Below are positions 28,708 through 43,739 of a DNA stretch of 64,000 nucleotides, piece after piece. Location: contig OZ024744.1 of NCBI GenBank assembly GCA_964016885.1, forward strand, positions 49,538,001 through 49,602,000, in the 5' to 3' direction. Made by a program: the position numbers and the translations under genes. This DNA comes from Eledone cirrhosa (taxonomy: Eukaryota). Every line of letters begins with the position of its first letter. Position 1 is the first letter of the stretch. The notes beneath the pieces are model-generated. The model searched no databases and was not told where the DNA came from. It was given only the letters and a program-made list of their open reading frames with translations.

Positions 28708-29043
28708 GGAGGCACATGGCTTAGTGGTTAGAGCATTGGCCTTGCAATCAAAAGGTTGTGAGTTCAATTCTCAGACTGGGTGATGTGTTGTTTCCTTGAG
28801 CAAGACACTTTATTTCACATTGCTCCAGTTTACTCAGCTGTAGAAATGAGATGATAGGGACTGGGATCCCTATCATTCCACTGCAAAGTGGTCGTGGAGG
28901 TGCCATGGCAAAAAAGCACCCAGCACTCACTGTAAATGAGGTTGGTGTTAGGAAGGGCATCCAGCTGTAGAAATCAAGCCAGAATCAGTTCCCGTCCCAC
29001 CCTTGCAAGCAGGGAAAAGTGGACGTAAAATGAAATGAAATGA

Positions 29044-36935: not shown

Positions 36936-37116
36936 TTCCACACTGTAAATGTGGTTGATGTTAGGAAAGGCATCCAACTGTAAAATACTTGGCCAAATTT
37001 ACAGTCCTCGCCGAAGCAAGGTGCGACATGGAAAACTCTAGCCAGACTTGCCTGTCGGCATGGATCAGCCCTCTAACCCATACAAGCATGGACAAATGGA
37101 CACTAAACAGTAATGA

Positions 37117-37183
<67 letters not shown>

Positions 37184-37808
37184 TAAATATATATACATAA
37201 TACACACACATAAATATATATACATAAATACATATATATATATATTTAAATGAAGGAAATGTGGTAAGGAACCAGGTGGACCATAACGCACCAAAGTACT
37301 CAATACTTAGGGTAGTAGAGTGAATAATAGGAACGAGTAGGACCCTGACGGCTGAGCTCAGCCGTCCGGGTCCTACTCGTTCCTATATATATTTAAATGT
37401 AGATTCCATATTGTAGAGGGCTTCTCAACAGATAGACCACAATATATATATATTTAAATAAAAATAGAAATGGAGTAAACATTACAATACAATGGGAGGA
37501 AATGTAATAGTACTTCTGATGATGTCACAGGTGTGTGATGAAAGAACTTTGATAGACTATATATATATTTATATCTATATTTTTAACTGTTGGTCAATCA
37601 ATGATAAACATTGATTGCCAGCTAAATTAACTATAGAGATATAAAATACACAGAAGTGAAAACCCAATCCAAACTAAACAGTGAGTCTGTTTTATTATTA
37701 TTTCTGGCAATATTATAACAATATGACTCTACCCAAATATAACAATATTTGTTTTAACACACGATTTCATATCAAAAACCTTGCAAAACAAATTCATATA
37801 TATACATA

Positions 37809-38144
37809 GGAGGCACACGGCTTAGTGGTTAGAGCATTGACCTTGCAATCGAAAGGTTGTGAGTTCAATTCTCAGACCGGGTGATGTGTTGTTTCCTTGA
37901 GCAAGACACTTTATTTCACATTACTCCAGTTTACTCAGCTGTAGAAATGAGATAATAGGGACTGGGGTCCATATCATTCCACTGCAAAGCGGTTGTGGAG
38001 GTACCACGGCAAAAAAGCACCCAGCACTCACTGTAAATGAGGTTGGTGTTAGGAAGGGCATCCAGCTGTAGAAATCAAGCCAGAATCAGTTCCCGTCCCA
38101 CCCTTGCAAGCAAGGAAAAGCGGGTGTAAAATGATGATGATGAT
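37809..38144 (+). mobile_element. tRNA-derived SINE family A
   Basis: Same sequence as 5511-5846. Confidence 0.9.
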
Positions 38145-38313
38145 GTTATATAATATATATCAAATTAAAAAACGGAGTTAAAGACTCACGTTAGTCTTCT
38201 ATAATTTAATGAGCTCAAGGAATAGATTCCAGGCTCTTTATAAAACAGTATATAGAGAGAAATACACAAAGAGATATGTGTTTAATTTTAGAAGTGTAGA
38301 CCATATTGTGGTC

Positions 38314-38393
38314 TACCTGTTGACAAGCCCTCTACACTAGGGAATCTTCATTTTTTGTGGCGAAACATGCTATAGTTAGTGCATGTCCAGGTG
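38314..38393 (+). ncRNA. Complete type I hammerhead ribozyme, U3-A8 core variant
   Basis: UACCUG-UUGACAA-GCC[..]GGC-GAAA-CAUGC[uauaguuagu]GCAUG-UC-CAGGUG; all three stems pair; GUC site, predicted cut after 38387. Confidence 0.85.
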
Positions 38394-38573
38394 TAATATT
38401 TATTATCGGATGGTTTGTACATTTTAAGTTATTATTTTAATTGATCTGTATTCTCCTTTCCTTTCGTGGACAATGTCCTTCACTCTAGTGGTTTTCTATC
38501 CCCTATAATTAAACATACCTCTTTGTGTATTTCTCTCTTTATACTGTTTTATATAAATATATATATATGTATA

Positions 38574-38636
<63 letters not shown>

Positions 38637-38679
38637 TTATATATACTCATATATACATTTTTTTTTCCTCGGTTTATAC

Positions 38680-39365
38680 GTTACTAGTTCTACTATGTTT
38701 TGGTCAAAAGAAAATCGTTGGTGTCACTTTCACATTGTGGATGAGCTCCGAGTTATTTGGGAAGCAGAGATCCAGGATATTCTAACCTCTTGTTAGATGA
38801 AGTACCATTTGTCCCACAAAGAAAAGTTTGTAAGATCCAACATGGATTCTGTCTGCCTTTGTTCAGGTGCCATCATCCCTGATAGGGACTGGCCCTCAGG
38901 CCAGTTCACCTTGGGGAGATTAAAATCTCCCAGTAGTAGGATGTTGAGACTCTGATCCTAATTTACCAGTATTTCTTCAATCTTTCTGAGTGTGTCTTCA
39001 AACTTGTCCTTGTGACTAGAGGTGTGTGTTGGTCGATATATGACATTTATTACCATTTTGAGTTGCTTCACATGTAATATTAACATGTCACAGAGTGAGT
39101 TGGAATGTGACAAGAGTACTAACGGTGTGACATCTTCATAGATGTGCAAAGCCACTCCACCATGGTTTCTTTCCATCCTGGTAGTGTGAAATACAATACA
39201 TTTTTGTACGTGTATTTCCACATCTGCTATGCTAACTTTCAGTTACGTTTCAGTTAGTGCCATGCATATTGCTTAATTGCTTGTAGTTAGGTCTCTCAGG
39301 CAGATGGTCTTATTCATGATGGTCTTATTCAGGCCTCTGACATTTAGTAGTAGCAATGACATTTG
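38680..39365 (-). mobile_element. CR1-clade LINE APE endonuclease fragment
   Basis: SLLLLNVRGL, RNHGGVALHI, IYRP, LLLGDFNLP on minus. Confidence 0.8.
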
Positions 39366-42012: not shown

Positions 42013-43388
42013 ATAAAAACTCAACTTTCTTTTAATATAGTTTTACTCCAAAACTAAAAATCTTTTAAGTTTTTAGATATTTACTCAAGTGTAAATAAGA
42101 ATAAAGACTATAAAATTGACCCATTATATAAAATAATGGTAATATAGAATAAAATCTTAAATGCGTGTATCAACAGGTACAATTGTTCAATGGACTAGCA
42201 GAACCAATTGATATTGATGTTAATCATATACTTAGGCTGGCTGGAGGCCATAATAAAGCATGCCCTTTGGTTGAAATATATACATACCTACACTCCCACT
42301 GACCTAGATAAAAATCATAAGAACTGTGAAACCGGTAAAGTAAATAAATATTCTTAAAAGACTTCAGATGCATTTTCAATTTCATTTCCTTATATAGACA
42401 TACATATACATATATCTCTATATATATAAACATATATATATATGTCTATAATAGAAAAAACAAGGAAGTTTCGTTTACATATGAAAAATATTTGTGTATC
42501 AACCTGTGAAAGACTTGTTTTGGTGTAAACCGGAAGCAGGGTGTGTGTGCACACGTGTATGTGTATGTGCGCACCCACCTGCGCACATACACACCCACAC
42601 TGCTTGCTGTTTACACCAAAACAAATCTTTGATTGACCAATACACATTCCAAAACGCGCTCACACACATTCATACAAATCCTTAATTGCTCACGTAAATA
42701 TGCACATGAATACCAGTGAATACACACACGCATTGCCGCCCCACAAATTACACCAAAATATACACATACGCCCACAAACAAAAGAAATAGGGCCAATGCC
42801 TATATATATACATTCTCGGTCCACATACCACAACAAAAATATATCTTTTGTCACATCATCAGTCTGAGGAGCAGATTGACACTGGAGTCAGGTCCATAAC
42901 TCCAATGGGTCACCTTGAGCCAATCCTCTGCAAAACATGCAAAACAGGTCGATACACAATAAATATTCTTCATATGTAAACAAAACTTTCTTGTTTTTTC
43001 TATTATATACACTCTGCCTGTGCATAGAGTGCTTGATTTGGTACCAACACCAGTATTTTACCATACTACCTATACTATATATATATATATATATATAAAC
43101 ATATATGAAAAGATTCAAGACTACAAGGGCTGAACTCTGACCATTTCGACAGATAGATCCAATAGATATATATATATATATGTATATATATGTTTATATA
43201 TATCAAAAGTATATATTGAGTTAAAAACTCACAATAGTCCCTTATAATTAAAATAGCTCAACGAAAAAAATTTTCAGAACCTTATGATATAATATAATAA
43301 AGAGAGACAAATACAGATATATACATATAAAACACATGCATCATTTAGTCTTTTAAGATATTTAGGAGTGAAGAGATTACTAATCTGT

Positions 43389-43467
43389 ACATCCACTGAA
43401 GAACAATCGGATTTGTAACTCTATCCACTTATTTGCAAAACAGTTCTACCAAAGGCTGTCTGGATGT
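43389..43467 (+). ncRNA. Degenerate complete type I hammerhead
   Basis: ACAUCCA-CUGAAGA-aCAA...UUGc-AAAA-CAGUU[cuaccaaa]GGCUG-UC-UGGAUGU; 7-bp stem I, GUC site; G12 changed to A. Confidence 0.65.
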
Positions 43468-43739
43468 TGATAGTTATCATGATTCGGTTGGTAATTCTTA
43501 ATTTATCCTTTTAATTGAGTCTAACAAACCGTGTTATTTTTAATTAGTATTTTCTTCACCCTAGCAGTTCATGTCCCTTGTGATTTGAACACATATATGT
43601 ATATATCTGTGTTTGTCTCTCTTTATTATATTATATGTTTATATATAAAAATATATGTCTGCCTCTATATATATATGACTTTGTATGTAGTAGATGTTCC
43701 AGGAAAATTGATAGTAAAAGTGTTAGTGATAAGTACATT

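Follow-up and report, generated by a model that had tools for sequence, protein, structure and literature searches.

The hammerhead ribozymes carried in the pLTRs of Penelope elements, among them the U3-A8 hammerheads of S. mansoni Cercyon, are described in PMC4209133 as type I motifs with U3-A8 covariation, found mostly in solo truncated copies, arranged in inverted pairs and variable from copy to copy. They are minimal motifs, with helix III all but absent and helix II long. That paper, of 2014, already recorded U3-A8 for Penelope-type hammerheads, with ~1300 matches in a schistosome, and section 8 of PMC3088659 gives the pair as natural and reported active in vitro, so the pair itself is not new. 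The animal non-LTR retrozymes described in PMC7229834 and 10.64898/2026.07.22.740005 are structured, non-coding units of ~300 nt with a low GC content, head-to-tail joins and one type I hammerhead. Pseudoknots joining the ends of stems I and II occur, according to PMC3088659, in ~40% of hammerheads, among all three types, and have been tested; those described there have at least four pairs, six in the tested case. Penelope-like elements are known for partial tandems, inverted truncated partners and tails at one end (PMC8557442, PMC3846280), and the tail of a lizard element, the green anole Penelope/Poseidon element PAc, has been explained by two internal start sites for reverse transcription (PMC11167929). 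PAc also uses AT-rich targets and inserts from uncut RNA.

The element described here, a dispersed repeat of 518-520 nt in the genome of Eledone cirrhosa, has no ORF, carries one type I hammerhead and resembles each of these systems in part. It has the topology, the U3-A8 covariation, the mostly solo truncated copies, the inverted pairs and the variable copies of the motifs in PMC4209133, but differs from them in a helix III of 6-7 bp, a helix II of 3-4 bp, a loop II of 29-31 nt, a long leader helix and the lack of an attached ORF. The non-coding unit, the low GC content (35%), the head-to-tail joins and the structured unit (circular folds of the unit consensuses give z -3.9 to -6.6 over 30 shuffles) recall the non-LTR retrozymes; unlike these, as the two reports present them, it is 518-520 nt long, shows Penelope-style inversions and tails, has no direct tandem of complete hammerheads among its loci and is known from genomic copies, retrozymes being marked by accumulation as unit-length circular RNA. 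The likeness to PAc lies in an optional tail defined by two 3' ends, AT-rich targets and apparent insertion from uncut RNA, but PAc is autonomous and its tail of ~30-40 nt lies inside the ORF, whereas the tail here is of 85 nt and non-coding. Like the pseudoknotted hammerheads of PMC3088659, the element has natural U3-A8 and predicted base pairing that links stem I to stem II at their ends, here by a helix of 21-24 bp that exceeds the span of its return linker.

The window analysed is a stretch of 64,000 nt from contig OZ024744.1 of this genome, and its features are collected in Table 1. A preliminary description had reported a complete hammerhead with stems I to III, a GUC site and a UUGACAA core, and this was confirmed when the sequence was read again. 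The motif has the type I topology, with three helices round the core and helix I open. The strict core (C3 U4 G5 A6 N7 G8 A9, G12 A13 A14, A15.1-U16.1, H17) is matched except at U3 and A8, which supply the Watson-Crick 3-8 pair as U-A. A strict descriptor that accepts a C3-G8 or U3-A8 core gave one match in the window and none in 60 windows simulated with its dinucleotide composition. Stem I pairs in no register but that of UUGACAA, and 25/28 first-round copies carry U3; an alternative register, in which the core would be canonical and decayed by A6U, was therefore discarded. That standard searches would miss such a motif also held true: Rfam gave no hammerhead at gathering score across the window and none at E<=10 in 37000-39000. 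The lowest-energy fold of the copy is not the hammerhead and is no more stable than shuffles (z -0.32, -0.85), and in the consensuses, too, another nested fold has a lower energy than the hammerhead.

Table 1. Features of the hammerhead-bearing repeat and its relatives (positions in the window unless a locus is named; F2 and F3 are sister families)
Feature	Position	Strand	Details and basis
Type I hammerhead motif with U3-A8 core	38314..38393	+	Read from sequence and family alignment; predicted cut between 38387/38388
Stem I	38314-38319 / 38388-38393	+	6/6 paired, distal pair U.G
Core UUGACAA	38320-38326	+	
Stem II	38327-38329 / 38359-38361	+	GCC / GGC, 29-nt loop II
GAAA	38362-38365	+	
Stem III	38365-38370 / 38381-38386	+	Five pairs past A15.1-U16.1
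C17	38387	+	
5'-truncated copy of 518-nt unit	38283..38553	+	Unit positions 169-443; ends at first preferred 3' end; adjoins TA microsatellite; 91.6% identity to subfamily consensus
Inverted partner piece	38155..38286	-	Unit positions 396-528; ends at second preferred 3' end, with 85-nt tail; alignment to unit
AG of possible 3' splice site at base of leader helix	38290..38291	+	Inferred; possible 5' site falls outside truncated copy
5' leader complementary to loop II	38291..38311	+	Predicted long pseudoknot helix; duplex energy vs shuffles
Loop II segment pairing with leader	38332..38354	+	Predicted from duplex energy; weakened by private changes 38337, 38340 plus 38351
Separate 51-nt fragment of 518-nt repeat	37395..37445	-	Unit positions 189-239; 5' half of hammerhead only; alignment to unit
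F2 hammerhead region	43362..43479	+	Canonical C3-G8 core; same leader/loop II helix; lost G10.1 and G12; model from alignment; ~60% identical
F2 copy	43198-43660		~522-nt unit with own inverted partner piece; loci L150-L179
F3 copy	L120:400-525	-	Same architecture, 24-bp leader helix; loci L180-L204

The repeat was sought in the 3.0-Gb genome. The first search gave 41 matches, with 40/95 candidates scored, and searches with other subfamilies as query gave up to 330 candidates; all copy counts below are samples biased towards the queries. In 90 distinct loci the end of one unit is joined to the start of another, head to tail, 32 times. The 3' ends that face outward in these loci lie at unit position ~443 in 43 cases, at ~528 in 41 and elsewhere in 47, and of the 38 insertions that are bounded by 3' ends left and right, half (19/38) have one at 443 and one at 528 while none has two alike. 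The two pieces at the present locus make up an insertion with one end of each kind, and the partner carries the 85-nt tail as it stops at the second preferred end. The repeat thus shows two hallmarks of Penelope-like elements, incomplete tandems accompanied by a partner that is inverted and 5'-truncated, and an optional tail at one end only with two fixed 3' ends. From this agreement we infer that it is likely to be a non-autonomous Penelope-like element of the retrozyme type. Seven near-identical copies (G000 C27 and C19; L129, L137-L142) share their ends and flanks, which suggests segmental duplication and not separate insertions.

The copies also bear on the RNA that was inserted. Two complete hammerheads in direct tandem were found in none of 289 loci of ~3 kb each in the family sample, which hold 113 distinct copies of the hammerhead region. 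When copies were picked by their downstream sequence, 53/60 read through the cut site, and 5' ends showed no pile-up there (1/60 exact, 3/60 within 268-282). It follows that cut linear RNA is not the usual template, which would mostly be uncut or rejoined RNA. Splice-like 5' and 3' signals lie ~143 nt apart in the unit consensus, and an AG stands at the foot of the leader helix, or close to it, in the 518-nt family (F1) and in both sister families; the 5' signal is not clear in F2 or F3. A pattern search for spliced copies gave 7 matches against 13 in the control, i.e. none above control. The AG, a candidate splice site, resembles the end of the intron of the fly Penelope, which adjoins its hammerhead.

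A helper that encodes a reverse transcriptase and a GIY-YIG endonuclease and shares a terminal repeat with the 518-nt unit was sought in one abundant candidate family (25 loci compared), with no convincing common sequence. This family (e.g. L225-L229) is very abundant, with 52,418 candidates of which 150 were scored, and has open frames of 743-816 aa; in L228 and L229 the open frame is preceded by a small canonical hammerhead-like motif. Pfam gave no family for these frames, which by their motifs look like a Penelope reverse transcriptase and endonuclease.

For the 3-8 pair, 100 distinct matches were reduced to 89 of full length and, after removal of five near-duplicates, to an alignment of 84 copies. 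The pair is U-A in 34 of these, C-G in 32, U.G in 10, C-A in 4 and something else in 4. When a tree of 83 copies was made with the hammerhead columns left out (410 columns used), the states fell into a ladder, C-G, U.G, U-A, with 12 changes of state over the 75 labelled tips compared with a mean of 31 and a minimum of 24 in 1000 shuffles. A few C-G copies fall among the U-A copies, which may be due to recombination or tree error. Copy-by-copy CpG decay was considered as the source of A8 and rejected; it would make UUGAUGA as frequent as UUGACAA, but among the 89 copies the former core was read once and the latter 17 times (p=1.4e-4), with UUGAUAA in a further 13. A8 is therefore the state of a source element, and U3-A8 is a compensated state of a multi-copy subfamily, not private decay. 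The compensated core pair of the preliminary description is upheld by the covariation of U3-A8 with C3-G8 inside a single family. The canonical C3-G8 consensus, which had been named as the sign of coincidental decay, was found in sister subfamilies and families, but the subfamily to which this copy belongs has U3-A8.

The direction of change is less directly read. The subfamilies are of equal age (7.8-8.3%), and age order gives no direction. Rooting by outgroup site count was evenly split, 19 to 20. With F2 as the root, a tree of the consensuses ordered them C-G, C-G, U.G, U-A with support of 88/95/97, on a very long outgroup branch. Since both outgroup families have canonical cores, C-G is favoured as the starting state, and the path was probably from C-G through U.G to U-A, as far as the sequences allow it to be traced. 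Many of the C-G copies carry C4, and a U4C change is tolerated in a viroid hammerhead (PMC3088659).

Selection on the source elements is argued from other parts of the ribozyme as well. Stems I and II show compensated swaps among the 84 copies, with UA in 46 and CG in 23 at a pair of stem I and CG in 48 and UA in 18 at a pair of stem II, and the structure is 86% paired across copies (stems 83-92%) against 29-53% in slid controls. By corrected mutual information the 3-8 pair ranks only 22nd and the stem I pair only 27th of 6555 column pairs, and non-pairing diagnostic columns covary as strongly. Because the copies are related, each swap may be a single event and Fisher values are overstated. 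Core columns are less changed than others (26/671 vs 363/5573, p=0.007), a comparison that is uncorrected for base composition and is not counted as proof. Taken with the subfamily states on the flank tree, the swaps in stems I and II suggest that the source elements were under selection. More weight lies with the five subfamily consensuses, each of which retains G5, A6, A9, G12, A13, A14, A15.1, U16.1 and the C11.1-G12 CpG, a dinucleotide lost in 37/84 individual copies, and with the persistence of the core in F2 and F3 at ~60% identity or less to F1.

These observations must be set against the idea that the hammerhead is functional only in the C3-G8 subfamilies and that the U3-A8 lineage was amplified after cleavage had been lost, or nearly so, through a lucky CpG change of G8 to A. 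In the intermediate, C7-G8 subfamilies G8 does lie within a CpG, so that its change to A is an easy mutation; most copies read through the cut site, as described above, and the lizard Penelope inserted in vitro with no need of hammerhead cleavage (PMC11167929). In the complete mutagenesis of one hammerhead reported in PMC9901934, the C3G/G8C swap was the only one given as rescuing the 3-8 pair, and U3-A8 was not among the rescuing pairs. The consensus of the U3-A8 branch nevertheless keeps the other core positions and the C11.1-G12 CpG, a mismatch in stem III is repaired on that branch, and its leader helix is near perfect. Natural U3-A8 in the schistosome motifs of PMC4209133 and its activity in vitro as reported in PMC3088659 also speak against a dead lineage, and we regard such a loss as unlikely.

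A further element, absent from the preliminary description, is a predicted helix of 21-24 bp between the 5' leader and loop II. In the five subfamily consensuses the duplex has energies of -13.4 to -26.4 kcal/mol, each reached by 0 of 1000 shuffles, while no other 22-nt window of the unit does better than -12. The U3-A8 subfamily has the value of -26.4 kcal/mol (0 of 1000), F2 one of -19.2 (2 of 1000) and F3 one of -32.0 (0 of 1000). The helix takes up no strand of the core or stems and would link stem I to stem II at their far ends. In one copy (L039:1475-1563), which has a canonical CUGACGA core, a deletion cuts loop II to ~10 nt and leaves by chance a compact, textbook-like hammerhead.

The sister families, which share this architecture, came by chance from the loci analysed, F2 by means of a model made from the alignment and F3 by the descriptor. 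The core is CUGAAGA in 23/30 copies of F2 and CUGANGA in 25/25 copies of F3, a family with no clear overall similarity to F1. In F3 the G10.1 opposite C11.1 is replaced by A in 16/25 copies and by C in 2/25, a multi-copy break of a usually conserved pair. F1 and F2 share the register of the leader helix, with a 2-nt linker to stem I and 5 nt to A9. Of the 11 proximal positions in F2, 10 pair and 8 are changed on both sides relative to the U3-A8 subfamily of F1, and duplexes made across F1 and F2 are weaker (-8 to -13.9 vs -19.2 and -27.6).

Inversions are frequent in these elements, and the complementarity of leader and loop II could be an inverted repeat kept perfect by template switching, with no part in the folding of the ribozyme. 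The scarcity of two-sided changes within F1, where they are seen at 4/17 helix pairs and in 1-3 copies each, fits such an origin, but it would not explain why the spacing to stem I and A9 is equal in F1 and F2 despite their difference in sequence, or why the helix recurs in F3, and we consider it quite improbable. The helix is instead likely to tether stems I and II as an oversized pseudoknot. The return linker is of 1-4 nt in F1, F2 and F3, too short for the full helix, and by rough lengths stem II can therefore close inside a single unit only if at least 3-6 distal pairs give way. This raises the possibility that the helix is a switch that blocks cutting in a single unit, presenting the ribozyme's 5' half on a hairpin loop to which the 3' half of a second unit docks, so that two units or a helix-opening protein would be needed. 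In the fold predicted for the U3-A8 consensus, as in that of F3, this helix is dominant, inserted copies come mostly from uncut or rejoined RNA, and Penelope-type hammerheads, in the accounts consulted, often require dimers or a protein. Such a block is still doubtful, as the opening of just 3-6 pairs would suffice within one unit and helix III is long enough for a monomer to act. In the literature searched we found no report of this family, of a stepwise 3-8 series within one family or of a leader/loop II helix this long, with the proviso that the supplements of PMC4209133 and PMC3088659, and work on 3-8 exchanges or small Penelope-linked variants, may show similar helices.

The copy at 38314-38393 is one of 26/84 that keep an intact core and proximal pairs. 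Compared with the other 33 U-A copies, its changes at 38337 and 38340 occur in none, those at 38351, 38380 and 38399 in one each and that at 38314 in three. These changes shorten stem III and weaken the leader duplex, which goes from -26.4 to -11.0 kcal/mol. The copy has the look of an ordinary, decaying, 5'-truncated insertion with private changes, and the selected function that had been proposed for this locus was not borne out. That the locus is an exapted host ribozyme under selection is very improbable indeed: the intact core and proximal pairs would suit such a role, but the other intact copies are equally so, the private changes in loop II and stem III weaken the leader duplex, and the copy sits among other repeats. 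The inverted partial sister reported at about 37400-37445 is present on the minus strand with the core UUGAGAA as stated; the fragment ends inside loop II, without GAAA, stem III or cleavage site, and with its 3' half absent it says nothing on function.

The neighbouring repeats are of several kinds. A short, hairpin-rich repeat (window 37250-37385 and 43106-43165; also L005, L018, L059, L137, L182) inserts in TA runs, forms head-to-head inversions and often adjoins hammerhead elements. The copy at 37250-37385 was examined as a second hammerhead family and rejected, as it has the GAAA...GUC pattern but no 5' core half. The sequences at 37810-38125 and 28715-28778 have a tRNA-like head followed by a repeat body and are probably tRNA-derived SINEs, and ~38660-39200 on the minus strand resembles, by eye, the endonuclease region of a non-LTR retrotransposon.

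The reading we favour, to which we give a probability of roughly 0.7, is that the motif at 38314 is a decaying copy of a type I hammerhead on a 518-nt repeat that is dispersed and non-coding and is likely to be a non-autonomous Penelope-like element of retrozyme type, whose source elements were likely selected for self-cleavage while the 3-8 pair shifted among C3-G8, U3.G8 and U3-A8. Transcripts longer than the unit would be cut after GUC, and the cut RNA possibly closed into unit circles. A Penelope reverse transcriptase-endonuclease acting in trans would copy the RNA into TA-rich DNA from two internal starts 85 nt apart. The leader/loop II helix would keep stems I and II alongside each other, taking over from the usual loop-loop contact; as 3-6 of its distal pairs would have to open first, it may also slow the cut. 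Once inserted, the copies would decay. A bolder and much less probable proposal is that these families form a clade of non-coding Penelope-type elements in which the 21-24-bp helix permits cutting only when two units come together or a protein opens it. Its strengthening would have let the 3-8 pair move from C-G by way of U.G to U-A, each state being kept as an amplified subfamily.

Families like the 518-nt repeat escape both Rfam and descriptors with a short loop II. This one contributes a natural series of states of the tertiary 3-8 pair, including a wobble intermediate, in subfamilies of similar age, so that the crossing of a low-activity intermediate by a pair of the catalytic core becomes testable on natural sequences. 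The leader/loop II helix is, in turn, a candidate brace or gate for Penelope-type hammerheads.
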